Part shown: piece by piece, positions 8,066-37,539 of the stretch
How the letters are laid out: every line of letters starts with the position of its first letter
Position numbering within the stretch: the first letter of the stretch is position 1
DNA from: a virus
Length of the DNA stretch: 64,000 nt
Reading direction: 5' to 3' (one strand)
Virus record (IMG/VR): IMGVR_UViG_3300020463_001735
Coordinates: 1 to 64,000 of that record
Notes under the pieces: generated by a model
The model's database searches: none
What the model saw: the letters and a program-made list of their open reading frames with translations, nothing else
What the model was told of the DNA's origin: nothing
Program-made: the position numbers and the translations under genes

Positions 8066-9283
8066 ATGGCTTTACAGATAAGACGTGGTACCGACGCACA
8101 GAGACAAGGAATAACACCTAAAGCAGGTGAACCAATCTTTACAACAGATACAAAAAAGTTGTTTATAGGAGATGGATCAACAGCTGGTGGTGTTATTGTA
8201 GACACAACAGGTAGTCAATTAAGTGATATAATCGAAGATACAACACCACAACTAGGTGGGTCATTAGATCTCAATAATCAAAATATAACTGGAACAGGTA
8301 ACATTAACATTACCGGACAAATTTCTGCTTCTTCTATTGATCTAAAAGGTTCTATATTTGCTGATGATTCAACACTGCTCGTAGATGGTATTTCTGGAAA
8401 AATTGTTGGTCCTGTAGAATCTAACGTTATCGGAAATGTTACTGGCAACGTAACAGGTAATGTTACAGGTAATTTGACAGGTGATGCAAATGGTAATCAC
8501 TCAGGTACATTTGATGGAACAGTTACAGCAGTTGGTCAGTTTGAAGGACAAGTTTTAGGTTCAATCTTTGGTGATGATAGCACTATGTTAATTGACGGTG
8601 TAAACAATAAAATTGTTGGACGAATTCAGACTACAGAAATTATAGATATAGATGCAAACGCACTTGCTTCTGGTGTAAATGCACTAAGAACAACAGGATA
8701 TATGCAACCAACTGGTTTAAATTCAGGTATAGGAATACAAACAAAGGCTGCTAGAAATAGTGGATCAAATACTCCTGTTACATTACAACCAGGAGACTTT
8801 ATCAAAGATATTATTGCAGCAGGTTATGATGGCACAGACTATACCACTTGTGCTGTGATTAAAATGGGCACAGACAAATATAAAACTATCCAAACAGGAA
8901 AGATGGCTGGTAGAATGATCTTTACAGCATATAAAGATGACGGTACATTTGGTTTAGATACTATTATGGTTTTCCAAAGTGATGGTAAATTATCAATTGG
9001 TGCTGGCGACAATCCTCAAGCTAAATTAGATGTTGCTGGCGATGGAAAATTTACAGGCACAGTAAATGCTCCAGCTTTCCAAGGTGATGTTACCGCAGAC
9101 GATTCAACTGTAATGTTCAACAGTAACACAGGACAAATTACTGCTCCAGGCACTGTAACCCTTGCTAGTTATACAACTACAGCAAGAAATGCATTAACGG
9201 CTGCTAACGGCATGATAATTTATAACACAACTACAAGTAAGTTAGAAGCATATGCTGGCGGTAGTTGGGTAGCTTTACACTAA
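8066..9283 (+). CDS. tail fibre / virion protein with Mtd_N (hyaluronidase-like) N-terminal domain
   Basis: MALQIRRGT...GEPIFTTDTKKLFIGDG N-terminus, GNVT repeats, three DDST repeats, C-terminal GMIIYNTTTSKLEAYAGGSW fibre motif. Confidence 0.75.
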   Translation: MALQIRRGTDAQRQGITPKAGEPIFTTDTKKLFIGDGSTAGGVIVDTTGSQLSDIIEDTTPQLGGSLDLNNQNITGTGNINITGQISASSIDLKGSIFADDSTLLVDGISGKIVGPVESNVIGNVTGNVTGNVTGNLTGDANGNHSGTFDGTVTAVGQFEGQVLGSIFGDDSTMLIDGVNNKIVGRIQTTEIIDIDANALASGVNALRTTGYMQPTGLNSGIGIQTKAARNSGSNTPVTLQPGDFIKDIIAAGYDGTDYTTCAVIKMGTDKYKTIQTGKMAGRMIFTAYKDDGTFGLDTIMVFQSDGKLSIGAGDNPQAKLDVAGDGKFTGTVNAPAFQGDVTADDSTVMFNSNTGQITAPGTVTLASYTTTARNALTAANGMIIYNTTTSKLEAYAGGSWVALH

Positions 9284-9936
9284 GTTTTTTTTTCGTAATT
9301 TTCTACTACACGTTTTTGCCAAGGCACTGTAAAGTCCCACATATTCACAGTTTCATCACTTTCAACTGATTCTATTGCTTTTTCCCAGGGCACTGTCATT
9401 AAATGTGTCTTTAGTATCATTCTTTCATTATCAGTTGCATTGGCAACACCATGAAAACGATTAACATTTAAAAAACTTGGATTAAAATATTCGTGGCTTT
9501 CAATTTTATTAGATGGTTTGTTATCTAATGTGTCATAAAAATCAATTACTGTTTTACCTCTAAGTGGAATGTTAAAAGCACTAAGAGCCCTAAAATTGAC
9601 AGCAGTATGTGGCGGTAGTAATCCTCCAGGAGGAAACCAAATAAAAGTAAATCTTATTACATGTTTTATTTCATCCCAGTTTAATTTGACATCAGATTTT
9701 ATTGCAATATTTGTTACCCTGGCATATAGTTCGTTCCATAACGGAATATTACAATCATAACACAAATTATAGATTGTTTGTTTTGTTGCATCAGTTCCTA
9801 TAACAGCATGATCTCCTATTTTAGATTTTACTTTTGTTTTAAAAAAGTGATCTAATTCTTCTTTATCCGATTCAAAGAAATCATAACCTTGTGTTTCTGC
9901 ATATCTATCTTCAAACTTATATCTAAAGTTACCCAT
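9280..9936 (-). CDS. Fe/2OG oxygenase-fold protein with HxA motif (halogenase-like)
   Basis: FPPGGLLPPHTA...NIPL...NVNRFHGVAN...ER; aligns by eye with the neighbouring HxD paralogues but has Ala in place of Asp. Confidence 0.6.
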   Translation of the reverse strand: MGNFRYKFEDRYAETQGYDFFESDKEELDHFFKTKVKSKIGDHAVIGTDATKQTIYNLCYDCNIPLWNELYARVTNIAIKSDVKLNWDEIKHVIRFTFIWFPPGGLLPPHTAVNFRALSAFNIPLRGKTVIDFYDTLDNKPSNKIESHEYFNPSFLNVNRFHGVANATDNERMILKTHLMTVPWEKAIESVESDETVNMWDFTVPWQKRVVENYEKKT

Positions 9937-10777
9937 TGTTTACCTCCCAACAATTTTCATAGTCAAAACTTAATCTATACAAATATCTATCTCCTTCAAC
10001 TGCATTACGTTTATGAATACTATGGAACTGATCCATAAAAATAAAATCTCCAGGTTGCCAATCATCATGATGCCAAATATATTTGTCTTGAAAAATGTGT
10101 GCCATTAATTTATCAAAGATAGGTTGCTTGTCTAACTTCTCTTCTTTACTGTCTCTAAGCCACATTTCTCTGATGTAATGAAATGTAAAGTATAATCCTT
10201 CATCACCATCATAAGGATGTGTATATACCAAAGGCTTGGTAACACCATATTTAAAATCTCTTGCGCCGCCTTTAAACATTTTTAATTCTTTGTCATCTTC
10301 GTCTAAGTCATAAAATGTTCCGTTTTCAAATTTGAATGTACAATCTATTTGTTTGTAAAAGTTTTTATCTTCTGCACTTAAATCTCTATATGCTTGTCTA
10401 GTATCACAAAAGCTGGTTACACTATTTTCGCCAGGACGTACACAATAAAGGGCTACACAGCATTCTTTGCCGCTTTTCCTACCATTACCATTACTATGCC
10501 AATCCAATTCTTTGTCTGCAAATATACCAATTTTCTCACCGTCTTTGCGTTCGTTAGTGACTCTAAACAAGCCAGGATAATCTGGGTGCATAAAAAACTG
10601 CTCTGGTTTAAGTATATTACCAATTAGTTCACATACTCTAAGTATACCTGCTTCGTCTAAATTTTGATTTCTAACAAGTACTACATTATCTTTTACAATG
10701 TTCTTACCCCAATCTTGAACTTCCGTATCTGTCATTTTGTCAAAATCAATTTCGTATCTTACAGCATCCATCTGCAT
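9929..10777 (-). CDS. TauD/TfdA-family dioxygenase
   Basis: VVLVRNQNL, WHSNG, TSFCD..AY..L, KPLVYTHP, WQPGDFIFMDQFHSIHKR, RYLYR. Confidence 0.8.
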   Translation of the reverse strand: MQMDAVRYEIDFDKMTDTEVQDWGKNIVKDNVVLVRNQNLDEAGILRVCELIGNILKPEQFFMHPDYPGLFRVTNERKDGEKIGIFADKELDWHSNGNGRKSGKECCVALYCVRPGENSVTSFCDTRQAYRDLSAEDKNFYKQIDCTFKFENGTFYDLDEDDKELKMFKGGARDFKYGVTKPLVYTHPYDGDEGLYFTFHYIREMWLRDSKEEKLDKQPIFDKLMAHIFQDKYIWHHDDWQPGDFIFMDQFHSIHKRNAVEGDRYLYRLSFDYENCWEVNNG

Positions 10778-11505
10778 TAGTTATTTTCTCCTAATAAAAT
10801 TTTTTTTGGATTTTGTGTTTTTCCGTTTACGTAATTACGCCACAGTACAGCATTTTCGAGTTCAACATTAAACTCTTCTTTACTTAATTTACCTATACTA
10901 AAATTTCCTACAGTGTCCCAAACATCTGCAACAAGATGCCATCTATCTGTTTTTCCGTTATTTTTAACATAATGATAAGGACTTACATCAGCCATATAAC
11001 AACCACCTTCTTCTAATTTGTATGTGTGATCACCATGAACAAAATCCGTGCCTTCTGTAACTATAGGTATATGCAATTTAAACCCGCCGCCATCACTGTG
11101 CTTATGTATAATACCCTGTGGTGGCAAATAAGATAACCTTACTCTTCTAGGATTCATACCCTTTTCATATAAGAAATTAACAATTTGTTTCCATATACCT
11201 TTACAAGCAATAGTTTCTACTTCATAGTCTAACATATGATATATTTTATGTTGCCTAGCATAATCTAAATTAAAATATATACGAGGATTAGGATTGGTTT
11301 TATCTTGTTCTGAATAAGGAGGATCTTGTAATCCGACGTTAAAATTAAATCCATTATATAGACTACCATCTTGTGAAGTTATACACAAACCATGTAATCC
11401 TCCTTTTTGGATATCATTTGATTTATTTTCTTTTAATAGATCGTATAGTTCTTTTTTTAATTGTTTTGTGTCAAACTTCCAACTATTTTTTACCACATAG
11501 TTCAT
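10777..11505 (-). CDS. aspartyl/asparaginyl beta-hydroxylase-like Fe/2OG oxygenase
   Basis: RVRLSYLPPQGIIHKHSD..LHIPIVT..HYVKNNGKTDRWHLV. Confidence 0.75.
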   Translation of the reverse strand: MNYVVKNSWKFDTKQLKKELYDLLKENKSNDIQKGGLHGLCITSQDGSLYNGFNFNVGLQDPPYSEQDKTNPNPRIYFNLDYARQHKIYHMLDYEVETIACKGIWKQIVNFLYEKGMNPRRVRLSYLPPQGIIHKHSDGGGFKLHIPIVTEGTDFVHGDHTYKLEEGGCYMADVSPYHYVKNNGKTDRWHLVADVWDTVGNFSIGKLSKEEFNVELENAVLWRNYVNGKTQNPKKILLGENN

Positions 11506-12152
11506 ACAAGTAAACTTTCCTTATTAGGTAAGTTATCGTATGCTATACCAAAAATTAAAACAATTCTTATATTATTAGAAGGATTTACAACTCTGTGCAA
11601 CCATCCTGTATTTACAAAATATGCTTCTCCAAGTGTCATATTTAAACTTACTTCTTCACTTTTTGTTTTCCATTGAAATAAACTTCCTTCTGTCTGTACA
11701 GGAATTTGCACACGGCATAACACACTTGTATCAGTATCTATATGATAGTTAAGTTCATTACCACCGTGCATGACGCTTATACGTGTTCTATAGGGTGTTT
11801 TAAACTTGGTGTTTAAATATTTTTGTATATGATCGCTTTCAATGTCATTTCGCCAAATTGTGTAGTTAGTTTCATTTATAACATCATCTGAAGAGCATTG
11901 TTGTAAAAGGATTTGTGAATAAGTTTCGCTTGCAGTAAACGTATTTTTTACATCACAGTGTTGACTGATTTGATAATTATCACCTCCTAAATCGTTAGCT
12001 TTGTACGAACATGCAATTTGAAAAATTTGATCAACTACTTCTTGTGGTACATCATCAGCTACTGTTCCGTGTGTAAGCATTTGATGTCTTCTAGGTCCTG
12101 TGCCTTTCACTCTGCTTCTACGTGTTTCTTTAATTAAACATTTTTCTGTCAT
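11502..12152 (-). CDS. aspartyl/asparaginyl beta-hydroxylase-like Fe/2OG oxygenase
   Basis: RTRISVM..YHID..RVQIPVQT..GEAYFVNTGWLHRVVN..RIVLI. Confidence 0.75.
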   Translation of the reverse strand: MTEKCLIKETRRSRVKGTGPRRHQMLTHGTVADDVPQEVVDQIFQIACSYKANDLGGDNYQISQHCDVKNTFTASETYSQILLQQCSSDDVINETNYTIWRNDIESDHIQKYLNTKFKTPYRTRISVMHGGNELNYHIDTDTSVLCRVQIPVQTEGSLFQWKTKSEEVSLNMTLGEAYFVNTGWLHRVVNPSNNIRIVLIFGIAYDNLPNKESLLV

Positions 12153-12159
12153 CTCTATC

Positions 12160-12831
12160 CTATCTATTGAAAGCTGGATCTAACCATTCTGTTTTTGTTA
12201 TCGGTCGGCTTACAGTCATTTTAAATAAAGACTTTTCTAGTAACTGTGTATATAGTGGATTTTGTTCTCCATGCCAAGGAGATCCGATACATAAAGTAAT
12301 TTTTTCCTCAGGATCAGGATCAATGCTATGTGCATGACTGCCGTCCATTGCATAGCTGTTGTAATATTCAGGAACGTATATTTTGTTATAATTTTTATCA
12401 ATAAAATATAATTTACCAATATTTCCATTTAACACAATTCGGTACTTATATTGTAATGTTCCTATTTCAGATTCTGCACTATCCAGATGAATATTTAATC
12501 CTGTATGAGGATTAGTCCTTAAAATAGTTACCCGTCCAGGAGGAGACATAAAAGGAAAAATTTTTTCTTGGCAGATTTTTTGTATAGTAGGACATTTTTT
12601 TCCTGCTGTAGTGTATTCAAATTGTCCTTGTGTTGTATCAATATGTGTACCGTCATTTAGTTCTACCCTACCGCCCATTCGTCCGCCGCCGTTGTAAATG
12701 GCTATCATGCGGCAACCTCTAAACTCGTTCCAATGATGTACGTCTGCAGATAATTCTAGTACCTCTTGTAGCATGGCTTGTCTTTCGATATCTGTAACAG
12801 CTATGTCAAGAGCGGCAAATGTAAAACTCAT
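12160..12831 (-). CDS. Fe/2OG oxygenase-like protein
   Basis: RVTILRTNP..NIHLD...MDGSHAHS..EKITLC. Confidence 0.6.
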   Translation of the reverse strand: MSFTFAALDIAVTDIERQAMLQEVLELSADVHHWNEFRGCRMIAIYNGGGRMGGRVELNDGTHIDTTQGQFEYTTAGKKCPTIQKICQEKIFPFMSPPGRVTILRTNPHTGLNIHLDSAESEIGTLQYKYRIVLNGNIGKLYFIDKNYNKIYVPEYYNSYAMDGSHAHSIDPDPEEKITLCIGSPWHGEQNPLYTQLLEKSLFKMTVSRPITKTEWLDPAFNR

Positions 12832-13547
12832 TAATTAACCTTTATTAATTTAATAAACCATTTAGTAGGATCAAACTCCCACCATTTTTGCCCTATTTCA
12901 TAACTCCCAGCACGTCTGTGATGATTGCGGTGCCAGCCCTCTCCAGCAGTAAGTATATTTGCAATCCAACTGTTATTTGGTTGTGCATTCTTATGTCCTA
13001 AAATGTTTAATATTCCGTACCCATGAAATGCTAAAACTACCGGCATAGCATAACCAAATATCATAAGCAAAGGATCAATTAAACTAAAAACTACAATTAT
13101 ACCAATATTTAAATGAAAATAATACTTGTGAAAGAATCTAAGTAAAGAATCTTGTAATAGTCTTTTTATAAACTTACGTTTAATTTTAAATCCATATCCC
13201 CATGTGTTTACGTATACTGCCCATATACCTTTTACACTGTGACTATGTGGATCTAACTCTGTATCACTGTGTGCATGATGTTGTCTATGAGTAGCGGCCC
13301 ATGTCATTGCAGGACCTGCACCTGCAAACATACCTAATATATTTACTGCCCAAGGATACCATTTGCCTGCTTCAAAGGTTTTATGACTGTAGTATCTATG
13401 ATAACCACCACTTATTGCCACTATAGCTATTATATACCACCACAAAAAAGCGCCGATGAACATCCACAATTCTCCGAACATAAATGCAGGTATTAGCATC
13501 AAATGACAAAATGTATGATTAATTAAAAGTTTTGTTGTGTTTTCCAT
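12831..13547 (-). CDS. membrane fatty-acid desaturase (delta-9 type)
   Basis: Three His boxes HRYYSH, HRQHH and GEGWHRNHH; SDTELDPH; hydrophobic segments; WEFDP. Confidence 0.9.
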   Translation of the reverse strand: MENTTKLLINHTFCHLMLIPAFMFGELWMFIGAFLWWYIIAIVAISGGYHRYYSHKTFEAGKWYPWAVNILGMFAGAGPAMTWAATHRQHHAHSDTELDPHSHSVKGIWAVYVNTWGYGFKIKRKFIKRLLQDSLLRFFHKYYFHLNIGIIVVFSLIDPLLMIFGYAMPVVLAFHGYGILNILGHKNAQPNNSWIANILTAGEGWHRNHHRRAGSYEIGQKWWEFDPTKWFIKLIKVN

Positions 13548-13548
13548 A

Positions 13549-14247
13549 TTAGTATTTATTTGGTTGTTTATCTACTGGGTATGCAACACTGATATTACTA
13601 GCAGTGCCTTCCTTTACAGCCTGTTCTTGGCCGCTTACTAAGTACTCTTTAAATTTAATATATTGCGGATTGTCACCTTGAATATGTTGCCACTTGTCAT
13701 TAGGATTTGCTTTTAGCTTCCATTCACGTAACTCAGGACGCATATTTACTGGCGCACAAAGTTCAAACCTTTCATTACCAGAACCAGGACAAATTTTGTG
13801 ATAGTAATGGGTTGCATTTAAATACCAAACAGTACCGTTCGGCACTTGAAGATTAAAAATGTCCTCACCTGTATCTACATCAATGTTTGCGTTACCTTGC
13901 ACTGTGACGTGAAACTGTCCATCTAGATAGTATCTATCTTTGTGCCAGACACTCATTTCTTCACTGTCATCAGAAGTATATGCAAGCACTATCCAATCTA
14001 CCTCTAAAGGTTTTTGATATATTTTTTCAAACTCTACAGCATGTTTATCTACTACTTGTGCAAATTCTTTGATAATAGGCAGTTGACTTGTCTTATGAAA
14101 ATGCCAAGTTTTATATGTGTGAAAAAATTTCCCACTAATATTACTTGACTCTGTCATAGGAAAATTGTCAATAATATATTTGCATTGTTCTAAGCACCAT
14201 TTAGGATCAAACTTATCAAAAATAGTATGTGTTGGTCCTATTTGCAT
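13549..14247 (-). CDS. Fe/2OG oxygenase-like protein
   Basis: WHKD...GTVWYLNATHYYHKI...ERFEL. Confidence 0.6.
   Translation of the reverse strand: MQIGPTHTIFDKFDPKWCLEQCKYIIDNFPMTESSNISGKFFHTYKTWHFHKTSQLPIIKEFAQVVDKHAVEFEKIYQKPLEVDWIVLAYTSDDSEEMSVWHKDRYYLDGQFHVTVQGNANIDVDTGEDIFNLQVPNGTVWYLNATHYYHKICPGSGNERFELCAPVNMRPELREWKLKANPNDKWQHIQGDNPQYIKFKEYLVSGQEQAVKEGTASNISVAYPVDKQPNKY
13553..13559 (-). promoter_or_regulatory. possible late promoter ATAAATA, 5 nt before the desaturase ATG
   Basis: Minus strand reads ATAAATA-CTAAT-ATG with no SD; it lies inside the 3' end of the upstream gene. Confidence 0.45.
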
Positions 14248-14879
14248 TATGCAAACTCCACATTTTTTATTACAAAATCAACTGTTTCAGGCACAGTTTT
14301 AACATTTAACACTACCCAATAACTAGGATCGAAACTTGCATTAAACAGTGTATGAACTTTTGCTGTGTTTAAAAAATGCATGTGACCACTAGTCCAATGT
14401 AAAATTTTATTATCTAAAATAAAATGTACTCTAGGAGCATTAAAATTTACAAGAGGCATAATAATTCTAAAACTACTAAAATCTTTTCCGTAAAAATCTC
14501 TATGCGGCGGAAAAAATCCTCCTGGATTTAATTTAAGAATATGGCTTCTAAAAATTTTATCTTTTATAGGCTTAATTAACGTATTTAATTTTTCATATTC
14601 TAAAACAGGTGTAGGAACATTAAAACTATCTTCTAACCAATTGGTTCCATGTTCCTTGTTATATTCTTTGAGAGAATCTAAGTCAGGTCTGCCTGACAAA
14701 CCTCCATCTGCACTAGTAATGCTAAGTCCCCATCTGTCTACATTTTTTCTTGGATTATATCTTACATATTCAAAATTTTCCTCGGTCCAGTCAACAAAAG
14801 CATCTGTATCATGTAGATTAGGACTTAGTAGTATTTGATCTCCATAGGCTGTAAGTGTAGAATATAATTCTATTGACAT
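14247..14879 (-). CDS. aspartyl/asparaginyl beta-hydroxylase-like Fe/2OG oxygenase
   Basis: RSHILKLNPGGFFPPHRD..FRIIMPL..FLNTAKVHTLFN. Confidence 0.7.
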   Translation of the reverse strand: MSIELYSTLTAYGDQILLSPNLHDTDAFVDWTEENFEYVRYNPRKNVDRWGLSITSADGGLSGRPDLDSLKEYNKEHGTNWLEDSFNVPTPVLEYEKLNTLIKPIKDKIFRSHILKLNPGGFFPPHRDFYGKDFSSFRIIMPLVNFNAPRVHFILDNKILHWTSGHMHFLNTAKVHTLFNASFDPSYWVVLNVKTVPETVDFVIKNVEFA

Positions 14880-15436
14880 TCATTTTCCTTTTTTGTTTTC
14901 CATTCATCTATTGATAGACTAGGCAATTTTATATCTTGTCCTTTGTATATAACACTTTGAAAACAATTTGTACTATCTTCATTGCAGGTTCTTAGCATCA
15001 AAGGATGTAATTTCCAAGAGCTATCTAGTTTGCTTGCTAATCTATTTAATGCTTTTCTCCTCTTAAGATCTTGCATACTAATAAAAACAGTGTCGTATGT
15101 ATTTAAATAATTTAGTTGGGCTTCGGCTAAATGTATGGCAGGAGTACGCTCATTTGTATCGTAATAAAGATGACTTCTTCTATGTGCAGGATTGTAATAG
15201 GTCCTAGTTAACAATCTATAACACCCATTGTAAAATTCTTGTATTGTTGCAAATGCTATTAGTTCTTGTTTTTCGACCAAAAAGAACCATTCTACAAATC
15301 TAGTTTTGTAAATTTCTGGAAGTCTATCGAACCAATCTGTGTTACGCCAGTCACCCGGATAACACAGTCTTTTAAAATATTCTAGTTCAGCTAGGAATCT
15401 ATCCTCACCAAATTCTTGTAAAGTTTGTATGTGCAT
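14870..15436 (-). CDS. hypothetical protein, possibly GNAT-fold
   Basis: Start reassigned to ATG 15436 because the upstream TTG is a -35 box; LIAFATIQ..YRLLTRTYY resembles GNAT beta strands. Confidence 0.45.
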   Translation of the reverse strand: MHIQTLQEFGEDRFLAELEYFKRLCYPGDWRNTDWFDRLPEIYKTRFVEWFFLVEKQELIAFATIQEFYNGCYRLLTRTYYNPAHRRSHLYYDTNERTPAIHLAEAQLNYLNTYDTVFISMQDLKRRKALNRLASKLDSSWKLHPLMLRTCNEDSTNCFQSVIYKGQDIKLPSLSIDEWKTKKENECQ

Positions 15437-15443
15437 TTTTATG

Positions 15444-15472
15444 TTGACTTTTCTATTTATTAATGTTATTAT
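15444..15472 (+). promoter_or_regulatory. sigma70-type promoter (rightward)
   Basis: TTGACT-N17-TATTAT. Confidence 0.7.
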
Positions 15473-15496
15473 ACAACAATATAGCCTTACTGTCAA
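15468..15496 (-). promoter_or_regulatory. consensus sigma70 promoter (leftward)
   Basis: Perfect TTGACA-N17-TATAAT on the minus strand. Confidence 0.85.
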
Positions 15497-15513
15497 GTAA
15501 ATATTGGATGCAA

Positions 15514-20715: not shown

Positions 20716-20722
20716 TTTCATA

Positions 20723-27240: not shown

Positions 27241-28298
27241 TGTTAGATAAAGAAAATTTAAAATTTGTAAAGAATATACTAAGCGTTACAAATAAAAATG
27301 TTGAGTTAGATACAGTAGATAAAATAATGACTTATGCACGTGATGAAGATTATCCGTCATTCTTTAACACTGTGCTTGATTGTTTAGATAATGATCCTAC
27401 ATTTAGAATAAAATACTTACGTATACTACATAGTATAAAAGATAACAACCAATATGAACTTTTTAAAGACATAATAGGTATAAAAGACAATGAAAAAACA
27501 GTAACCGAACTTGTAAAAATATTACCTATAATAAAAGCAATTACTGATCAAAACGAATTAGACTTTTTTAATTCTACACTTACTGTGACAAATCCTACAC
27601 TTGATGTAGAAACTTTATATAATATACTTAAGACAGTAAAAGATCAGCCAGAACTTAAAGAAGATATATTTGATAGTTTTAGTGACAATCAAATTGCATC
27701 TAAAACAGCATTATTAAGTCAAATTGATGAATTAAATTTTTTGAACAAAGATAGTAATGTTGTAATTTGGGGTAGTTGGTATGGCAGTATACTGATTCCA
27801 CAACTAGTAAATCGTGTGAACAAAGTTGTGTGTATGGACATTGATGAGAAACCTTTAAATATTGCAAAGAATAGATTTTTTACAAACTATAGAAACATAG
27901 ATTATGTCAGCGGAGATGTTTTTGAAAACTACAAAGACATATATCAAAAAGTAAATTTAATTATAAACACATCATGCGAACACATGAGACCTATGGAAGA
28001 ATGGCCCTGGTTTAGATTTAGTTCAATGGAGACAGATGCTGTACATCCTAAAGGATACGCTGACGACAAACCACACAGACGAAAAGTTTATCAATCAGCA
28101 AAACTATCAAGTGACTGTTACTTTGCTTTTCAATCTAACAATATGTTCGACATACAAGGACACATAAACTGTGTAAATAGTTTAGAAGAATTTAAAAAGC
28201 AATTACCAGAAAGAGCAGAAGTACTATACGAAGATGAAGTAGCCGACACAAGAGGTACTAGATATATGCTAATAGGAAAGTTCAATCATTTAGTATAG
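27240..28298 (+). CDS. class I SAM-dependent methyltransferase-like protein with helical N-terminal extension
   Basis: VIWGSWYG, CMDID, GDVF, INTSCEHM. Confidence 0.6.
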   Translation: MLDKENLKFVKNILSVTNKNVELDTVDKIMTYARDEDYPSFFNTVLDCLDNDPTFRIKYLRILHSIKDNNQYELFKDIIGIKDNEKTVTELVKILPIIKAITDQNELDFFNSTLTVTNPTLDVETLYNILKTVKDQPELKEDIFDSFSDNQIASKTALLSQIDELNFLNKDSNVVIWGSWYGSILIPQLVNRVNKVVCMDIDEKPLNIAKNRFFTNYRNIDYVSGDVFENYKDIYQKVNLIINTSCEHMRPMEEWPWFRFSSMETDAVHPKGYADDKPHRRKVYQSAKLSSDCYFAFQSNNMFDIQGHINCVNSLEEFKKQLPERAEVLYEDEVADTRGTRYMLIGKFNHLV

Positions 28299-28944
28299 TA
28301 TTATACATATTGTAAGCAATAAGATTTTGTGTTTGTGGTCCAGGATGTCTACCATCGCTGGCATGATCTAAAAAAATATATTCAGGATTATGAGTTTCAC
28401 AAAAATTAATATATCGTATATTCACTTCATTCCAATCCGGTTCTTGAATATTGTTAAACGGTAATTCTGTCCAAATAAAATGATAATTTTTTACACCTTT
28501 TTTATCTAGAAACAATTTTGAAAAATTAATGGCTGAATAGCTTTCTACATTTTGATTTAGATCAAAATATAAAGTTTTATAAAATGATTTTGCCATTTTT
28601 CTTTTCAATGGATTTTTTTGTAATGTAATAGAAGATGGTTGTATGTCAATCCATCTTTTTTCATCTGTATAAAAAGTAGTTCTAGCAAAATCTGTCCAAA
28701 GTATTACAGCAATGTCATCTTTTTTATATTTTTGTTGTACAATTAAATTACAAATGTTTTTATTGCTAGTTCCAGGAAATCCTAAATTTTTTACCGGCAT
28801 CATATTTAAGAATTTACTTAGACAGGTAGGCCAAGCATATTTACTTGGATAGGGAGATCTCCCATTATTACTATTAAGACAGTCTATCAAACCCTCACCA
28901 TAAGTAATACTACATCCGAATGCCATTATTCTTTCAATGTTCAT
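28282..28944 (-). CDS. SGNH/GDSL-like protein
   Basis: AFGCSITYG, NLGFPGTSN, ILWT..R, DGRHPG. Confidence 0.6.
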   Translation of the reverse strand: MNIERIMAFGCSITYGEGLIDCLNSNNGRSPYPSKYAWPTCLSKFLNMMPVKNLGFPGTSNKNICNLIVQQKYKKDDIAVILWTDFARTTFYTDEKRWIDIQPSSITLQKNPLKRKMAKSFYKTLYFDLNQNVESYSAINFSKLFLDKKGVKNYHFIWTELPFNNIQEPDWNEVNIRYINFCETHNPEYIFLDHASDGRHPGPQTQNLIAYNMYNTILND

Positions 28945-29594
28945 TTTATAATTCCATATACTTGTGAGGCTAGATTATCATGTGCTTTTAAACCTGGATG
29001 CATATTATCTGCTCCATAATCATCTAATAACTTTAAATTTTTTATAGGAGATAAAAACCAATTAGGAACAAAATCAAGTTCTGATGATATCATTTTTTTA
29101 TCTCTACTAAAAGTAAAGTTATAAACTTTTACACCATAATTAATTAAATATCTATAACTATGATCGATAGCTACATATGTTTCATTTTGTGAATTAAATT
29201 CATTAAAAAGATGTGTATAAAATATTTTATTTAAATTTCTTCTAGCTGGTAGATTTCCTTTTCTTTTCTCAGTATAACTAGGCATAAACTGATAAGGGCT
29301 CTTTTTTTTGCTATGTAAAAAACAAGTTCTATTATGGTGTGTCCATAACACAACCACTGTATCATTTTTGTTTAAATCTGCATCTAATATAGAATGCTGT
29401 ATTTCTTTGTTTGATGCACCACACACTGCATAATTTATACACTCTAAAGATAACTTGTCGGCAAGTAAGTATGGCCAAGAAAATTTGCTTGGAGGTGGAA
29501 TAGGTATACCTGGTTTATTTAATGTGCCAATGCAATCTGGTAAACCCTCTCCGTATGTATGACTACATCCGAATGCTATGAGTCTATTCATCAA
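28941..29594 (-). CDS. SGNH/GDSL-like protein (paralogue of 28282-28944)
   Basis: AFGCSHTYGEGL, NYAVCGASN, VLWT..R, DNMHPG. Confidence 0.6.
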   Translation of the reverse strand: MMNRLIAFGCSHTYGEGLPDCIGTLNKPGIPIPPPSKFSWPYLLADKLSLECINYAVCGASNKEIQHSILDADLNKNDTVVVLWTHHNRTCFLHSKKKSPYQFMPSYTEKRKGNLPARRNLNKIFYTHLFNEFNSQNETYVAIDHSYRYLINYGVKVYNFTFSRDKKMISSELDFVPNWFLSPIKNLKLLDDYGADNMHPGLKAHDNLASQVYGIIK

Positions 29595-30258
29595 ACTTTT
29601 CCCTCAACCATTCAAAATTATTAATTAACCCAAGATCAGACCTCCTAGAAAGGCCAAACTCCATACCAGCGGTAGCGCCTGCCAAAGCGTATTCGCCATA
29701 TGGTCTATCGTGTCCCACGGTTGTCCAAGTTTTGAGTCTTTCTTCAGTTTCATTATGTACCTGCCTTTCTATTGTTTTACTTGCTAATTTTGCACATTCT
29801 CTAAAAGCACTGCGCCATGTGCTAAATTTGTCTGTATTAAAACACGTGATATTGCTTATTTTTTCAACCACACAGAAGTTTTTGCTAATACTTGTTGTCA
29901 TATCATTAGTATTTTTATCCATTTCTAAAACTAATTTTCTTGGAAGTAATTTAATACCACCGTATCCGTAGACTAAATTATTTATTGGATTTATACTTTG
30001 CCAAACATATACAGTGTCATAACAAACATTAAAATTTTGTTTGAAATTTTCATCAAAATTAAAACTAGGCACGATATCTGCATCACCATCTATTACATAA
30101 AACATTTTTGTATCACAAAGTTCTGCGGCTTTTACATGTGCATTATGTATTCCTTGTACATTGTCAATACGTTTTATAAAAGGAATTATTTTTTTAAGTT
30201 TGCTAAACCTTTGTTCTTTGTCTGGTTCTTTGTAACTTATGTATACAACATCAAACAT
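29584..30258 (-). CDS. GT-A glycosyltransferase-like protein
   Basis: DVVYISYKEP, AHVKAA, IDGD (DxD), GYGGIKL, WRSAFRE. Confidence 0.6.
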   Translation of the reverse strand: MFDVVYISYKEPDKEQRFSKLKKIIPFIKRIDNVQGIHNAHVKAAELCDTKMFYVIDGDADIVPSFNFDENFKQNFNVCYDTVYVWQSINPINNLVYGYGGIKLLPRKLVLEMDKNTNDMTTSISKNFCVVEKISNITCFNTDKFSTWRSAFRECAKLASKTIERQVHNETEERLKTWTTVGHDRPYGEYALAGATAGMEFGLSRRSDLGLINNFEWLREKFDE

Positions 30259-31684
30259 TTACAAAAGCCCATTCGTCAAAGTAAGATACAAATTCAGGAA
30301 ATGTTTGTTTAAAATTAGTGCCTCTTCGCTTGTCATACTCTGTAATATATTCAACAAAGTTGTATCTTGTAAGTTGTAAATCTTTAGGATCTGCTTTGTT
30401 TTGTAACTCAATTACACTGTTATATATACGCATAATTTTTTCACTTTCATTCGGCCATTGATCAGTAGGAGCTGAATCATATGCATCTTGTAGTGTTTTT
30501 ATAATTTTTTTCATATATCTATCTAATATCTTTCTTGGTGTAATCATTATATCTAAAAATTTAGGATTTCTTACATAGGCAAAATCCATGGTAATAGTAG
30601 GTGAATGTTTTCTTAAATCATTAATATCGTTTATCATTAGATGCAGTGTAGTTGTGCTTAACATATTGACTGCACACATAATGCTTAGTTTAACACTTTT
30701 TGTATTACTTACAAGCATTTTTAAGTTTTTCAACCATAGGTCATAGTCCATACCAAATCTTACATAATTATTTTGTTCACCTTTTGCTTCTGCACTAGTA
30801 TAAATTGTAAAACTTTTAATACTTTTAGTATCTTCTAAAATGTTAATTTTGTTAATAAAACTTTTCCATATTTTATGGGGAGGACATGCATTAGTATTGA
30901 TAGCGAACTCTAAATTAGGTTGAGGATTCTCTAGAAGATAGTCTATTACTTTCATAGTGTGTTTACTTAATAAAGGTTCTCCACCTGTAATTCTAAATAC
31001 ATGCATGTGTTTTACTGCTTCAGGAAACCATTTCCAAAATGCCTCTATATAAGGATTGTGTTCTCTTTCCAAATATTGTACCTCATCAGGATTTATAAAA
31101 CCAAATTCTCTTTTGTTTCCTTTGTAATCTGTATATTTGTAAGTTCCTTTTTCTTTTACTTCTTCAGTCCATTTGCTACTAAAAGCTGGTCCGCAGTAAG
31201 CACACTTAAAATTACACACATTACTAAAACTTATTTCAACATATTTCGGAAATATATTTTCATTGCCCTTGCTTTCCATTATTTCATGTAAATAGGGAAT
31301 ACTCCAGTCTTGTATGCTTTTTGTAATTCGATCACTAAAATGATTGCTGTTATCTTCAATACGCCAACAGTAATCACATTCTACAGGACGTTCACCGTTA
31401 AGCATTTCTTGTCTTCGTTCTTTTTTAAATTCTGTATTATGTAATGCACCTGGATCTTTTTCAAGCTCGTCAAGTTTAATTTTATGTGCACCTACGTGAT
31501 GACAACTGTGTGTGATACCACTACCTAAATGTGTTGTCACTTGAGTCCATTTTGCTAAACAAAATCCAGGACCAACGGCATCTAAAGAATCTTTAAGTAA
31601 TTCTAATTTACGCGGATCATTTTTGTCAAATTTAAGTCGTTTTGCAAGACTTTTTGCTTTTACACGTTGCCATTCAGCTTTCAC
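30251..31684 (-). CDS. radical SAM protein with N-terminal Twitch-like domain
   Basis: FCLAKW..HSCHH..ECDYCW; CNFKCAYC; TGGEPLL; NTN. Confidence 0.9.
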   Translation of the reverse strand: MKAEWQRVKAKSLAKRLKFDKNDPRKLELLKDSLDAVGPGFCLAKWTQVTTHLGSGITHSCHHVGAHKIKLDELEKDPGALHNTEFKKERRQEMLNGERPVECDYCWRIEDNSNHFSDRITKSIQDWSIPYLHEIMESKGNENIFPKYVEISFSNVCNFKCAYCGPAFSSKWTEEVKEKGTYKYTDYKGNKREFGFINPDEVQYLEREHNPYIEAFWKWFPEAVKHMHVFRITGGEPLLSKHTMKVIDYLLENPQPNLEFAINTNACPPHKIWKSFINKINILEDTKSIKSFTIYTSAEAKGEQNNYVRFGMDYDLWLKNLKMLVSNTKSVKLSIMCAVNMLSTTTLHLMINDINDLRKHSPTITMDFAYVRNPKFLDIMITPRKILDRYMKKIIKTLQDAYDSAPTDQWPNESEKIMRIYNSVIELQNKADPKDLQLTRYNFVEYITEYDKRRGTNFKQTFPEFVSYFDEWAFVNV

Positions 31685-32562
31685 CGTATTCTCCTAGCTG
31701 GAGGTGCGTACACTGTTTTAAAGAATTTACTTTGTTCCTCATCTAATGCAACTTTACTGATAGGTAATCCTTGCTGTTGTAATACTTCGCCATATTCAGC
31801 AATCTTTTGTTCTACAGGACAATCTTTAATCTCATTCCAGTATTCATTAAGCCATTTGAAATCTCTTGTTACAGAATGATCCCAATCGGTTGCAAGTATC
31901 TTTTGGCAACCATCTCTAGCACCCATTATAGCATAAAGTCCATTATTAACATCTGCACCAACATTCAACCAAACAAGTAGTCTATTGTAATTTTGCCACC
32001 AAGTATTATTTGCAAGATCCTCTACCTTTGCACCTCTGTTTAGCGACATTTTGACACCTTCTCGAAATCCTGCTCTCCAAGCCTGATGTGGTGTTGCACT
32101 AATAATGCTGGTTGAATAGTTTTCGTTTAGTTGGTAATAGTTATCAAAGTAACAAAATTCTATTAATGTATCGTCAGACCCGTCTGTGTTTTCATGTGTC
32201 TTCATATTCGCAACAAAATCCTTTGTCCACATTTTTAAACTTCCGTTACCGTATCTCAAACCATTTATGTCAATGTTACCACACCAGCTGAATTGGTAAT
32301 CATCATCTACTCCCAATTCATCTAAGTCTAAAACAACATTTAAAAATTTTGGATCAATAACAGTATCACCATCTACGGTTACAAAGTGTTTTGTTTCTGA
32401 TATATCTGCACAGGCTTTATGTGCCGCATCTGAGCCGTCTACTCCGTGTATGCGTTTGGCATAAGGCACTTTCGTAAGTATATCTGCATAATTTTTTTCT
32501 GCATTAGGCTCATCATATGAAAGAAAAACAATATCACAATCTCCAACTTTTATATTATTCAA
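31681..32562 (-). CDS. GT-A glycosyltransferase-like protein (paralogue of 29584-30258)
   Basis: DIVFLSYDEP, AHKACA, VDGD, YGNG, AWRAGFREG. Confidence 0.6.
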   Translation of the reverse strand: MNNIKVGDCDIVFLSYDEPNAEKNYADILTKVPYAKRIHGVDGSDAAHKACADISETKHFVTVDGDTVIDPKFLNVVLDLDELGVDDDYQFSWCGNIDINGLRYGNGSLKMWTKDFVANMKTHENTDGSDDTLIEFCYFDNYYQLNENYSTSIISATPHQAWRAGFREGVKMSLNRGAKVEDLANNTWWQNYNRLLVWLNVGADVNNGLYAIMGARDGCQKILATDWDHSVTRDFKWLNEYWNEIKDCPVEQKIAEYGEVLQQQGLPISKVALDEEQSKFFKTVYAPPARRIR

Positions 32563-33070
32563 TTGTTTCTCCTATTGTGTGATAGTAACTTTGCATATCG
32601 GGTTGTGTTATAATCCTGCAATTATCAAAATATTTTGTATCAAACGTAAATGGTCCATCAAAGAAATCTTGATATCTACATTCTAGTGTACAGTACAATT
32701 TGTTTGCGTTATTTAAGTGTATTACAAAAAACTTTTTAAAAGTTTGAGAAGGCGGCAGTTTATCAATGCTAAATGTATGTGTAATGCTGTAACATTTTAA
32801 TTTTGGATTTTGAATAATATATATGCTGTTGGGTTTTTTATTATCCGACATTTCTACTGTGAATACATTGCTGTGTAAAGTTTGTTTGCCGTCTTTTTTC
32901 TCCATTACATAGTCATGTTTTTTCACAACTATATAATCATCAATATTTTCTACTGCATCTGCAAACTTTTCATACATCTCAGCACTTATTTCTAAATACT
33001 GCAATATGTTATCAGTTTCATTAGTAATTTTTAATATTTTACCTGTGCTATCAAAACCAACATACAACAT
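32555..33070 (-). CDS. hypothetical protein
   Basis: 171 aa, translationally coupled within the operon. Confidence 0.7.
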   Translation of the reverse strand: MLYVGFDSTGKILKITNETDNILQYLEISAEMYEKFADAVENIDDYIVVKKHDYVMEKKDGKQTLHSNVFTVEMSDNKKPNSIYIIQNPKLKCYSITHTFSIDKLPPSQTFKKFFVIHLNNANKLYCTLECRYQDFFDGPFTFDTKYFDNCRIITQPDMQSYYHTIGETIE

Positions 33071-33873
33071 TATTTAAAATGCTCCAACAATTCATCTGTG
33101 AGAAATTCATCTTCCACATAATGTAACACACCTTTTTGTGTGAAGTTACCTAAATATATATTATCATCCAAATAGACATCAAGATAATCAGTCCATTTTT
33201 CTGGAACATTTTCCCAATGTTGTGCGTGGGGTTTCATATGTGTAAAAGTAAGTGGCATTTTTAAATTAGGTAAGTCTAAAAGTTTATATGCAATAGCACA
33301 ATTCAAATCAAAACTTTGCCAATTTTGTTTTCTCTTAGGTGCAAATTGTTTATAAAAAATTTGCCAGTCTTTGCTGATAATTTCCACTAATAGGAAAAAT
33401 TCTTTTGCAATATTATTTTTTTTAAAATAGTACAATCCACTATACAAATTAGGTAAATTATTTGCAACAAAAGTTTTTCTATAGTAATTTGTCGATACAA
33501 CATCTTTTCTGTACGTAACGACATCTGTTGTAAATGCTACACTGTGTTCACTACATTTATACCACCAATCAGATATATCTTCAAGAATTAACATGTCTGC
33601 ATCCATTACGATAGTATTTTCATAAGGTGTTAAATGATAAACTTTCCATCTATTTTCTATTTTCCAGTCACTATTCACTGCAAGATTTCCCCAAGGAATA
33701 GGAATAATTTTGTCAAATACATCTTTATATTCATTCGGTACGTTATCGTCTGTAATTAAGCTAACATTTTGATTTCTATTGTTTTTGTGTATACTACATG
33801 CTAATGCATATGCTTGTCGTACATAGTCTGTTTTATAATTATTTTCTGCTAGTATACAAAATCCATTATTCAT
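33070..33873 (-). CDS. GT8-like glycosyltransferase
   Basis: DYVRQAYALA, LTPYENTIVMDADM (DxD), FTHMK, LHY; ATG at 33873. Confidence 0.6.
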   Translation of the reverse strand: MNNGFCILAENNYKTDYVRQAYALACSIHKNNRNQNVSLITDDNVPNEYKDVFDKIIPIPWGNLAVNSDWKIENRWKVYHLTPYENTIVMDADMLILEDISDWWYKCSEHSVAFTTDVVTYRKDVVSTNYYRKTFVANNLPNLYSGLYYFKKNNIAKEFFLLVEIISKDWQIFYKQFAPKRKQNWQSFDLNCAIAYKLLDLPNLKMPLTFTHMKPHAQHWENVPEKWTDYLDVYLDDNIYLGNFTQKGVLHYVEDEFLTDELLEHFK

Positions 33874-34705
33874 TTGCAAAATCCTTATCTATGTATCTAT
33901 CCAAACTAAATTTATTCATTACATGCAAATCAGATCCTTTTATTGTACAAGCAAGTTCATTTTTGTCTTGTTGTAAAAGTAAAATCATTTTTGTATCTTC
34001 TATATCTATAAGTGTATCTTTTCCTGTAATCATATACAGTGTAGGTAATACTTTGGGCCAGGCAACTGATTCATGGTTACTAAGTATGTGGAGTGCAATG
34101 CTAAATGCAAAATCATTTCTGTATGTGTTAGAAACAATATTATACAATAATTTATAATAGCTCCAATTATCTCTTATATGTTCTATTAGATTAAAAAGTA
34201 TTTTAGTTTTGTTTGTTTTTTTAAAATAAAATACTGTAGCCCAATACATTGGAATACTTGTGTTGCTTACTAATAATTCTGCAGAATTGTCTCTTGTGGT
34301 ATTACAATCAAATGCTAATCTGTTAATTAAAAAATTGTGATTAGTTTTGAAGCATTGTAAAATACTTTTACTATTAACAACAAAGTCTGTATCTATTACC
34401 AATGTATGTTCATAAGGTGTTAAATCATAGCAAGATGCACGAGAAAAATTTTTCCAAGTAGCATCTATATATGAACTTCCGTCATAAAATTTTTTTTGTT
34501 GTGTTTCATAAGATGGTTCTACTTGTATTACTTTGTTGATATATTTTTTATAAAAAGGAAATTTTTTAAGTTGTTCAGCACTATCTGTAACTAGTGTGAC
34601 GTGTAATTTTGTAAAACTTTTTACACGCTTCGCACAAAAGATTGCTTGCTTTACATAATCTATTTGTTCATTATTATTAGCAAACAGCAAAACACCTTTG
34701 TTCAT
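33866..34705 (-). CDS. GT8-like glycosyltransferase (paralogue)
   Basis: DYVKQA, LTPYEHTLVIDTDF (DxD), WATVFYF, RNDFAFSIA, HVMNK. Confidence 0.6.
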   Translation of the reverse strand: MNKGVLLFANNNEQIDYVKQAIFCAKRVKSFTKLHVTLVTDSAEQLKKFPFYKKYINKVIQVEPSYETQQKKFYDGSSYIDATWKNFSRASCYDLTPYEHTLVIDTDFVVNSKSILQCFKTNHNFLINRLAFDCNTTRDNSAELLVSNTSIPMYWATVFYFKKTNKTKILFNLIEHIRDNWSYYKLLYNIVSNTYRNDFAFSIALHILSNHESVAWPKVLPTLYMITGKDTLIDIEDTKMILLLQQDKNELACTIKGSDLHVMNKFSLDRYIDKDFANE

Positions 34706-35046
34706 TAATCTAATAATCCCTTAATTTTTTTATTACTTTTAAACTTGTTGTATGCAATTAAATATTTGTTAGTGCTTTGTATATAAACATCAACAATATC
34801 ATCAATAAATTGTTTTGGATTTTTAATTTCTACAGGTATGCTGTTACTATCAAGTAATACTAAAGGTTTTTCTTTTGAAAGTATAAAATTGCAAAATGTA
34901 ATTAAGTCAGGAGTAACTTCAAACGCACAACCATCTTGATAATGATAACAATTATCTTGGTATTGTTTTAAAAGTATATTTTTTTGATTTTGTAATGTTT
35001 GCGAAAAATTAGCAAACTCTAATGCTTTTTCTAACTTTGAATCCAT
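34705..35046 (-). CDS. hypothetical phage protein
   Basis: AGGAGG SD; 113 aa. Confidence 0.75.
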   Translation of the reverse strand: MDSKLEKALEFANFSQTLQNQKNILLKQYQDNCYHYQDGCAFEVTPDLITFCNFILSKEKPLVLLDSNSIPVEIKNPKQFIDDIVDVYIQSTNKYLIAYNKFKSNKKIKGLLD

Positions 35047-35065: not shown

Positions 35066-35094
35066 AGTATACAGGAAGTAATGATAAAAGTCAA
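35066..35094 (-). promoter_or_regulatory. sigma70-type promoter for the glycosyltransferase operon
   Basis: TTGACT-N17-TATACT. Confidence 0.75.
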
Positions 35095-35986: not shown

Positions 35987-36004
35987 CACTTTTTATTAAC
36001 TACG

Positions 36005-37514: not shown

Positions 37515-37539
37515 TTCTTATAACCCCTAATACATAATG

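Follow-up and report, generated by a model that had tools for sequence, protein, structure and literature searches.

The first 64 kb of an 80,186-bp IMG/VR virus record (IMGVR_UViG_3300020463_001735; this whole stretch is called the window here) hold a 26-kb island of tailoring-enzyme genes (9280-35046) that lies between tail genes. We find that the third operon of this island, module B, continues the fibre gene block as a constant part of it, and that the remainder is a flexible cassette region. Judged at the level of predicted folds, module B encodes two GT8-like and two GT2-like enzymes, all soluble glycosyltransferases (GTs), alongside a radical SAM (rSAM) enzyme of the N-twitch type. We tentatively read the island as a cytoplasmic glycan-building system that has a virion tail or baseplate protein as its acceptor. 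A narrower proposal is more doubtful. Under it, module B would serve specifically to O-glycosylate the virion in a widespread lineage of marine (and some soil) jumbo myoviruses, and the cassettes would diversify the sugars; the system would then be a phage counterpart of bacterial flagellin glycosylation islands and would give N-twitch rSAM enzymes a new role in sugar chemistry.

CheckV rates the record 23% complete, which puts the whole genome at ~350 kb, and homologues of island genes were found on contigs of 310-356 kb. Both observations uphold the 'jumbo' label given by the initial annotation of this DNA. The structural genes are of the jumbo-myovirus kind, and the phage is a marine jumbo myovirus of the RsoM2USA/XacN1-PA5oct type. 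The GC content of the window is ~33%, and nearly identical DNA has turned up in eight studies of seawater and marine metagenomes. A megablast search of 9280-33000 against GenBank phages gave zero matches. Enzyme classes were assigned by Pfam and NCBIfam profiles, and tail genes by PHROG and Pfam; PHROGs were uninformative for 20 island proteins.

The initial annotation described about 33 coupled genes in three operons between tail genes. This arrangement holds: we count 34 open reading frames (ORFs), nine on the minus strand (9280-15496), 16 on the plus strand (15463/15508-28298) and nine again on the minus strand (28282-35046), and 28 of the 31 intra-operon junctions overlap or abut, the largest gap being 7 nt. 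Along the genome the order is gp5, gp25, gp6, a 4955-aa giant protein, fibres, island and Mtd_N fibre. The blocks on which the argument rests are as follows.

8066-9283, plus strand: left-flank tail fibre with an Mtd_N N-terminal domain (Pfam Mtd_N, 8.4e-13; PHROG tail-fibre C-terminus)
9280-15496, minus strand: operon 1, g01-g09 (Pfam, blastp and motifs)
15463-28298, plus strand: operon 2, g10-g25 (Pfam/NCBIfam)
28282-35046, minus strand: operon 3, that is module B, g34-g26 (fold models, profiles and synteny)
35101-35937, minus strand: f35, a conserved Ser/Thr-rich protein (26% S+T; alignment of homologues)
36012-42106, minus strand: three tail-fibre genes (500, 638 and 673 aa) and a 204-aa protein, s_204, upstream of f35 (PHROG/Pfam)

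Within module B, the genes run in the following order, all on the minus strand.

34705-35046, minus strand: g34, placed by synteny
33866-34705, minus strand: g33, GT8-like, from a fold model with a predicted local distance difference test (pLDDT) score of 92
33070-33879, minus strand: g32, GT8-like, a paralogue of g33
between g32 and g30, minus strand: g31, placed by its position in module B
31681-32562, minus strand: g30, GT2-like, from a fold model with pLDDT 92
30251-31684, minus strand: g29, N-twitch rSAM (NF033640, 320.9 bits; cut-off 170)
29584-30258, minus strand: g28, GT2-like, a paralogue of g30
downstream end of module B, minus strand: g27 and g26, SGNH proteins (profile below cut-off; mutual paralogy 4e-31)

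The rSAM gene g29 served as the anchor for following this operon through other phages. At least 305 relatives exist in IMG/VR, from which 80 loci were fetched, and 55 of these have at least 6.5 kb of upstream sequence and are testable. In 37 of the 55 the genes f35-g34-g33-g32-g30-g29 stand in this order on the strand of the fibres, at g29 identities of 42-77%, and in every one of these 37 full-module loci fibre genes lie directly upstream of module B. The position of f35, between the last fibre gene and module B, is equally constant (37/37, and partly in RsoM2USA_355). The other 18 testable loci are distant rSAM paralogues (41-44%) in other contexts. Outside metagenomes, operon 3 corresponds to genes 355-347 of the soil phage RsoM2USA (MG752970, all annotated as hypothetical), where the order f35-g34-g33-g32-(x)-g30-g29-g28-methyltransferase is retained at 33-42% identity. 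This block is situated downstream of gp5, gp25, gp6, the giant structural protein and the virion-confirmed ORF356, and a further virion-confirmed protein, ORF361, is encoded nearby. RsoM2USA is the sole carrier of the module-B GTs among 50,697 GenBank phage records. The operon-1 and operon-2 cassettes of the window phage are missing from this site in RsoM2USA.

These loci refine the claim that the island is linked to tail genes. For module B the linkage is firm, extending over the 37 orthologous loci and RsoM2USA and lying far beyond chance; module B is collinear with the fibres and tracks fibre genes rather than polymerase or nucleotide-metabolism genes. For operons 1 and 2, the linkage may reflect only a permissive, hyperplastic site, since the cassette region differs between close relatives.

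No profile matched g28, g30, g32 or g33 themselves, and Pfam Glyco_transf_8 was absent at E <= 0.01. PDB sequence searches were likewise blank for g33 and g30 and for the f35 and g10 profiles. We therefore turn to AlphaFold2 models of g33 and g30, built on alignments of 35 and 40 relatives from IMG/VR loci, respectively. The g33 model superimposes on glycogenin-1 with a Z-score of 16.4 and a root-mean-square deviation of 3.4 over 205 aligned residues (Foldseek E 1e-6). Its top 50 structure matches are all of the GT8/GT24 type, with UGGT, GlyE, LARGE1 and LgtC (Z 14.7) following glycogenin. Across the 35 aligned sequences D107 is invariant and D105 and H206 are nearly so; H206 may be the counterpart of the distal His of GT8 enzymes. 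On this model, g33 is a GT8-type GT-A protein over its whole length, and g32 follows by paralogy. The g30 model adopts a GT-A fold (Z 8.4-9.9 over ~130-140 residues), with D64xD66 invariant in 40 sequences. Foldseek ranks GTs first for g30 (ThuS/SunS, A64R and TarP; A64R at E 2e-4, Z 8.7), and every named match in BFVD is a glycosyltransferase, including the Che8 GT at rank 26, among many uncharacterized entries. For the paralogue g28, a fused homologue, P0327, has a g28-type domain (55% identical) that scores 28.5 bits against Pfam Glycos_transf_2 (PF00535; cut-off 23.3). The four to five GTs proposed in the initial annotation thus become four at the fold level and none by a profile match of its own. 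The g30 family itself is large, with at least 8000 metagenome homologues on contigs of up to 356 kb, none of which carries a Pfam domain or functional name.

Gene fusions tie module B to one gene of operon 2. Some other marine contigs encode g30 and g28 as one protein (529-656 aa), and in further ones both are joined through a helical linker to a methyltransferase of the g25 type (850-1220 aa). The g25-type methyltransferase also follows g28 directly in RsoM2USA and in many loci. These fusions and this position suggest that the operon-2 methyltransferase belongs functionally with module B, and the link between methyltransferase and GTs in turn speaks for a shared product of the operon-2 cassette and module B. 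Transmembrane (TM)-like segments are found island-wide only in g06 and g15 and in none of the GTs, and Pfam searches of the island returned no flippase, polymerase, polyprenyl-phosphate transferase or Gtr/Oac-type protein, which together place the chemistry in the cytoplasm.

To delimit the fixed part, the full island was compared with those of three relatives, G001 (262 kb, 73% complete), G003 and G005, whose gp6 proteins are 58-59% identical to that of the window. All three share one flank comprising the giant protein, s_204, three fibres, f35 and module B, and a second flank comprising the Mtd_N fibre, a 205-aa protein, a VWA protein, CobS and an exonuclease. The Mtd_N fibre homologue occupies the equivalent position in a fourth locus (L007) as well. 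The 17-25 kb between g28 and the Mtd_N fibre differ completely in content among the three. In G001 the operon-2 core comes right after g28 and is followed by an ATP-grasp enzyme, an ABC importer, a PP-loop enzyme, a GNAT protein, a B12-rSAM and a 2-oxoglutarate (2OG) oxygenase; the importer (L103:369-3843) consists of two BPD_transp_1 permeases, an ATPase and an SBP_bac_8 binding protein. In G003 the operon-2 core is inverted, and in G005 six rSAM genes are accompanied by a methyltransferase gene and by oxygenase/desaturase genes. Relatives can have as many as 6-7 rSAM genes in tandem behind module B. The proposal of a single 26-kb pathway is accordingly not sustained, because only module B is fixed and the rest differs between close relatives, one of which has an ABC importer there.

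Counterparts of operons 1 and 2 are found in the 141-kb T4-like pelagimyophage Mosig EXVC030M, a Pelagibacter phage, which has the same divergent two-operon layout (genes 00072-00094) placed between its tail fibres and the VrlC/gp8 baseplate genes. Identities range from 25 to 55% overall and are highest for g24 (55%), g23 (55%), g10 (54%), g16 (50%) and g08 (47%); g02, g04, g06, g13, g19, g22 and g25 are present too. The operon-2 core (g10, g16, g23, g24 and g25) is 45-55% identical and is ordered as in Mosig 00083-00090, and it recurs in ~25 IMG/VR loci in either orientation. Homologues of g02, g04, g06 and g08 lie on the corresponding side of the island in both Mosig and L007. No tblastn match for g28-g34 was obtained in Mosig.

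Candidate acceptors are found in the structural genes next to module B. The gp6-like wedge (phrog_10646, 1012 bits), which with gp25 and a gp5-like hub/lysozyme is encoded beyond the fibres and the giant protein, is a 1205-aa protein whose best tblastn matches are SCTP-2, Atu_ph07 and PA5oct (36-38% identity). Its C terminus carries a low-complexity extension.

56996-57295, minus strand: C-terminal tail of the gp6-like wedge, candidate O-glycan acceptor (sequence inspection)

This tail of ~100 aa comprises an S/T-rich stretch, ~30 consecutive Ser and a G/S-rich end (GGYGY). It is conserved in G001, G003 and G005, all of them carriers of module B, and is absent from the cultured jumbo phages SCTP-2, PA5oct, Atu_ph07 and GAP32, all of which are without module B. 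The co-variation of tail and module B in these sequences is suggestive and imperfect, and the cases are not phylogenetically independent. The S/T-rich f35 and the fibres are alternative candidate acceptors. The fibre region (36012-41488) shows Peptidase_G2, Collar and Gp10_C domains and PHROG tail matches. For f35, searches of Pfam, PHROG and PDB were all blank and its Atlas neighbours are viral hypothetical clusters only; it is probably a structural protein.

Long S/T repeats also occur farther afield. A distantly related 183-kb contig (G002) encodes a very long (Gly-Thr-Ser)n-type repeat protein (G002:C1:66200-69700, minus strand), which accounts for 85 of the 89 matches to a degenerate S/T codon pattern on that contig, the other four lying at ~122.9 kb. 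The degenerate (WSN)12 DNA pattern used for S/T tracts is too noisy to score Mosig or RsoM2USA.

Motifs upstream of the genes bear on when module B might be expressed. Six structural-type genes have an octamer, ATAAATAC, at a distance of 23-83 nt upstream: s_204, gp6, f35, the 500-aa fibre and two genes past the window.

36004-36011, 37539-37546, 42122-42129 and 60633-60640, minus strand: ATAAATAC octamer upstream of structural-type genes
74316 and 76255 of the contig, plus strand: ATAAATAC octamer beyond the window
35066-35094, minus strand: sigma70-like promoter TTGACT-N17-TATACT in the f35-g34 spacer, boxes conserved in relatives
15444-15503, both strands: divergent sigma70-like promoters between operons 1 and 2, upstream of g09 and g10

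A close variant, ATAAATAT, is located upstream of the Mtd_N fibre. The octamer is not over-represented genome-wide and is non-random only in its position upstream of genes. It resembles the T4 late promoter and is a candidate late promoter of this phage lineage; the T4 late promoter TATAAATA itself is not enriched (5 matches against 14 expected). Boxes of the form TTGAC[TA]-N17-TATA[AC]T precede the three island operons, f35 and cobS. A generic sigma70 scan performs at chance (68 sites against 70.5 expected), and only intergenic sites conserved in relatives were used. In the f35-g34 spacer of 16 relatives that resemble the window, the -35 and -10 boxes are kept and the spacer varies. Twenty other loci (class II) have a TAAATA-type motif there, 19 reading TAAG[AG][TG]TAAATAG and one (L072) ATAAATAA, and the fibre gene follows a TAAATAC motif in the five TAAATAG loci examined for it. 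No terminator was found between f35 and g34. Through the class II motif before g34, or through read-through from f35 in the window, module B could be read from late-type promoters. If these motifs act as promoters, their timing would accommodate a virion, host or DNA target alike, since an early-type promoter is also present.

Operon 2 is a cassette of tailoring-type enzymes with the following genes.

operon 2, plus strand: g10, conserved enzyme of unassigned class (family of 1488 members, none named)
operon 2, plus strand: g11, kinase-like (APH 22.3 bits; cut-off 23.2)
operon 2, plus strand: g12 and g13, apparently a split N-twitch rSAM (NCBIfam profile; radical SAM match in g13)
operon 2, plus strand: g14, SGNH-like, by motif alone
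operon 2, plus strand: g15, small membrane protein with TM-like segments
18921/18999-20072, plus strand: g16, DegT aminotransferase (full-length, 4.5e-90, 302.9 bits; cut-off 19.8)
operon 2, plus strand: g17 and g21, a QueC-like PP-loop pair (QueC 1.7e-5, SGGxDS motif, paralogy 4e-8)
operon 2, plus strand: g18, N-twitch rSAM (NF033640, 296.8 bits; cut-off 170)
operon 2, plus strand: g19 and g22, nitroreductases (Pfam)
22757-23332, plus strand: g20, no profile match
operon 2, plus strand: g23, radical SAM (Pfam/NCBIfam)
25735-27240, plus strand: g24, NodU/TobZ-type carbamoyltransferase (Carbam_trans_N 60.9 and Carbam_trans_C 217.9 bits, 8e-65)
27240-28298, plus strand: g25, weak methyltransferase (19 bits), with homologues fused to GT domains elsewhere

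The nearest equivalogs of g16 are the nucleotide-sugar aminotransferases PseC, LegC and DesI, each scoring below its own cut-off. At 123.6 against the NodU equivalog (cut-off 1000), g24 does not qualify as a NodU orthologue. The cluster motif CxxxCxxC occurs as CNLDCYMC and CNFKCAYC in the g18/g29 sequences. A motif in g20, 'GGTNTAGCV', recalls the active sites of isochorismatases and cysteine hydrolases and has no profile support.

Operon 1 brings together oxygenase-type proteins and a desaturase.

9929-10777, minus strand: g02, TauD-type (Pfam 1e-30)
10777-11505, minus strand: g03, AspH-type (Asp_Arg_Hydrox 43.1 bits; cut-off 22.6)
11502-12152, minus strand: g04, AspH-type (Asp_Arg_Hydrox 25.3 bits; cut-off 22.6)
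14247-14879, minus strand: g08, marginal AspH-type (Asp_Arg_Hydrox 21.4 bits, just under the cut-off of 22.6)
9280-9936, minus strand: g01, weak paralogue of g08 (blastp 1e-4)
12831-13547, minus strand: g06, membrane FA_desaturase with three His boxes (Pfam 2e-11)

TM-like segments in this operon are confined to g06. The oxygenase label of g05 and g07 comes from HxD...H motifs alone, and neither a relaxed Pfam search (E <= 5) nor single-sequence hhalign gave oxygenase or GNAT confirmation for g05, g07 or g09. In g01, H-T-A stands where the paralogues carry HxD, a variant of the facial triad like that of halogenases. A limited search of bacterial genomes with g06 retrieved genes of metagenome-assembled genomes that are 24-30% identical, and one 27-residue fragment at 59%, with no island neighbours. 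The AspH family also includes the lipid hydroxylases LpxO and OlsC. By analogy with these, the combination of AspH-family proteins and a desaturase may fit lipid substrates at least equally well.

Taken over the whole island, the enzyme inventory of the initial annotation is largely confirmed by profile for the TauD and AspH-type enzymes, the desaturase, the four rSAM enzymes, DegT, the nitroreductases and the carbamoyltransferase; g05 and g07 are left unconfirmed, and the kinase and methyltransferase matches are weak. Its observation that no scaffold synthase is present also stands, as nonribosomal peptide synthetase (NRPS), polyketide synthase (PKS) and YcaO matches are absent from the island and the enzymes are of soluble tailoring type.

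Islands of this general kind have precedents. The window island is of the hypervariable 'host recognition cluster' (HRC) type, with conserved flanks and a non-syntenic interior. The published HRC lies between VrlC and fibre/neck genes and contains GT8 and rSAM cassettes (Zaragoza-Solas et al. 2020, PMC7029224). Both are large non-syntenic islands in the structural region, reaching from a giant VrlC-type protein to the fibres, both combine GT8-type GTs with rSAM cassettes (here 4-5 rSAM genes), and both gain and lose cassettes between close relatives. Mosig differs from the window phage in being a ~140-kb T4-like phage rather than a ~350-kb jumbo myovirus and in lacking module B, and a fibre-collinear GT/rSAM operon is not described in PMC7029224. 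Virus-encoded, soluble GT-A enzymes that work in the cytoplasm are known from mycobacteriophages and from chlorovirus PBCV-1 (A64R), to which the fold of g30 is matched through A64R and the Che8 GT. In mycobacteriophages, capsid and tail-tube subunits are glycosylated at their C-terminal parts (Freeman 2023, as cited in PMC12619734). Unlike those systems, module B shows no sequence-level homology to them, its glycosylation role is read from genes, and rSAM and large tailoring cassettes are added.

The logic of the window island also resembles, by analogy, that of bacterial glycosylation islands. Flagellin and O-antigen islands of the Pse/Leg type pair a conserved transferase core with variable aminotransferases, PP-loop amidotransferases and methyl-, carbamoyl- and acetyl-transferases, a set that varies a surface glycan. 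A nonulosonic-acid synthase and a CMP-activating enzyme were not identified here. LPS-like islands with rSAM genes have been known among the tail genes of abundant ocean myoviruses for years. What appears to be new is the invariant fibre-collinear operon of GTs and an N-twitch rSAM, its link by fusion to a methyltransferase, and the poly-Ser wedge tail. With RsoM2USA as a cultured carrier of the invariant operon and Mosig as one of the main cassette, the choice between virion, host surface and DNA becomes testable. Should the target be the virion, glycosylated tails would be a common and hitherto unrecognised factor in how marine phages recognise their hosts, stay stable or evade defences.

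In the glycan-building reading, the cassette enzymes would act in the cytoplasm on nucleotide-sugars of the host and yield unusual sugars with amino, carbamoyl, methyl and acyl groups. From these modified sugars the four GT-A enzymes would then assemble a short glycan on a structural protein of the same gene block, either a fibre or f35 or else the gp6-like wedge at its poly-Ser tail. Exchange of cassettes would diversify the glycan between related phages, much as in bacterial flagellin and O-antigen glycosylation islands, and operon 1, with its AspH-type hydroxylases and membrane desaturase, may be a separate lipid-directed module. The fold-level identity of the GTs, their fusion to a methyltransferase elsewhere, the fibre-collinear GT operon, the cytoplasmic setting, the sugar aminotransferases nearest to DegT, the swapping of cassettes, the poly-Ser tail as a candidate acceptor and the mycobacteriophage precedent all support this reading, and the late-type motif found before g34 in class II loci, as before the fibre gene, also favours it. 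Several observations count against it. By Z-score g30 is equally close to the nucleotidyltransferases IspD and MobA; RsoM2USA has module B and yet a gp6 without an S/T tail; it is hard to see what a membrane desaturase would contribute to the tailoring of a glycan or protein; sigma70-like promoters, as for early genes, and not the late-type motif, precede all three operons; and the ABC importer of G001 indicates that the variable site also gathers unrelated auxiliary genes. The hydroxylation of virion proteins suggested in the initial annotation finds no counterpart in the window: the EGF-type motif C-x-[DN]-x4-[FY]-x-C occurs in 0 of 9 structural proteins, and the sole collagen-like (G-x-y) run is 15 residues long, at the Gly/Ser end of the gp6 tail.

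Published work on such islands speaks for a different target, which is also to be set against a virion acceptor. The GTs in the HRC of pelagimyophages and cyanomyophages, of which GT8 is the commonest there, have been read as modifying the host O-chain (PMC7029224; PMC12801897). Remodelling of the host envelope would alter the LPS/O-chain, capsule or membrane lipids of the infected cell, for example to shut out superinfection by competing phages or to change its surface over a long infection; it is a serious rival, above all for operon 1, though somewhat unlikely. The early-type promoters before all three operons would suit it, as would the pairing of AspH-family enzymes with a membrane desaturase-family protein in operon 1 and the presence in GT8 of LPS enzymes such as LgtC, itself a match of g33. 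It would leave unexplained, however, why module B stays strictly collinear with the fibres in 37 loci and in a soil phage and why a late-type motif precedes it in class II relatives, and the island shows no membrane GT, flippase, Wzy/Wzx, GtrABC or acyltransferase_3-type protein. That the enzymes decorate a base of the virion DNA against restriction is the least probable of the alternatives, and quite improbable. Under it the GTs, carbamoyltransferase, kinase-like protein, pyridoxal-phosphate, rSAM and 2OG enzymes would all act on DNA. Phage NodU/TobZ-type enzymes can carbamoylate 5-hydroxymethylcytosine (5hmC) (PMC8670742), and phage GT-A enzymes that glycosylate 5hmC share the fold neighbours TarP and A64R with g30, a further point against a virion acceptor, and occur with APH-like kinases and epimerases; weak QueC-like and QueE-like matches and the early-type promoters point the same way. 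Known clusters for sugar and carbamoyl hypermodification, found in uncultured phage contigs, likewise contain a NodU/TobZ-type carbamoyltransferase, GT-A enzymes and an APH-like kinase, but they adjoin ThyS, 5mYOX or a C5-methyltransferase and replication genes (Yang 2021, PMC8670742; Pyle 2023 preprint). Here the neighbours are fibres, module B follows fibre genes and not polymerase or nucleotide-metabolism genes, and hydroxymethylase, 5mYOX and C5-methyltransferase genes were not found in the 80-kb record. Nor did this record, itself 23% complete, give a thymidylate-synthase-family or TGT/DpdA (PF01702) match; its blank for Tet_JBP is uninformative, the control genomes also being without a match. 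The 73%-complete G001 has no ThyA-family gene, and another relative, G004, has one ~60 kb from the island. Carbamoyltransferases on unmodified contigs adjoin GTs, as here, and the g30 family is without the R...DDD...EDY/F motif reported for DNA GT-A enzymes.

Two further readings do without a polymeric acceptor or without a shared product. The island might make a free or secreted small molecule, such as an aminoglycoside-like aminocyclitol or pseudo-oligosaccharide, or modify a non-virion peptide in the manner of ribosomally synthesized and post-translationally modified peptides (RiPPs). The set of a twitch rSAM, DegT, a TobZ-type carbamoyltransferase, an APH-like kinase and GTs recalls the logic of 2-deoxystreptamine aminoglycosides (BtrN/BtrS/TobZ), and this likeness, an analogy drawn from general knowledge, would agree with such a product; so would the tandem rSAM arrays of relatives and the nitroreductase-fold and PP-loop enzymes, which are frequent in RiPP and cofactor pathways. 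We consider it improbable all the same: profile searches of the island gave no cyclitol synthase, NRPS, PKS, YcaO or recognisable precursor peptide, an exporter is absent from the window, and the fixed position after fibre genes would go unexplained. Alternatively, there may be no common product, the hyperplastic site having gathered unrelated auxiliary genes of which only some cassettes cooperate. The complete turnover of 17-25 kb among the three close relatives is what this would predict, as are the ABC importer, ATP-grasp, GNAT and B12-rSAM genes of G001 and the composite make-up of the island from blocks of two unrelated phages, Mosig and RsoM2USA. Against these stand the invariant content and order of module B, the order of the operon-2 core, kept at 45-55% identity across phage families, the fusion of the operon-2 methyltransferase to module-B GT domains elsewhere, and the translational coupling of 28 of the 31 junctions, and we regard this reading, too, as unlikely.

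Specific modification systems were also tried as candidates and rejected. For 7-deazaguanine DNA modification, a PF01702 match is absent and g17 reaches 16.7 bits against a QueC cut-off of 150. For a seroconverting O-antigen module (GtrABC, Oac), there are no such Pfam matches, and the TM-like segments are those of g06 and g15 only.

Other features of the flanks are of interest in their own right. The giant protein is a single 4955-aa ORF (42126-56993, minus strand) in the VrlC/gp7 position, with a faint FG-GAP repeat match only, and is about twice as long as its counterparts in RsoM2USA (2541 aa) and Mosig (2045 aa). Past the Mtd_N fibre, a CobS-like AAA ATPase and a DUF2201/VWA (CobT-like) protein are encoded at 4037-6535 on the plus strand, with 59-80% identity in relatives; this is the customary auxiliary pair of marine myoviruses.

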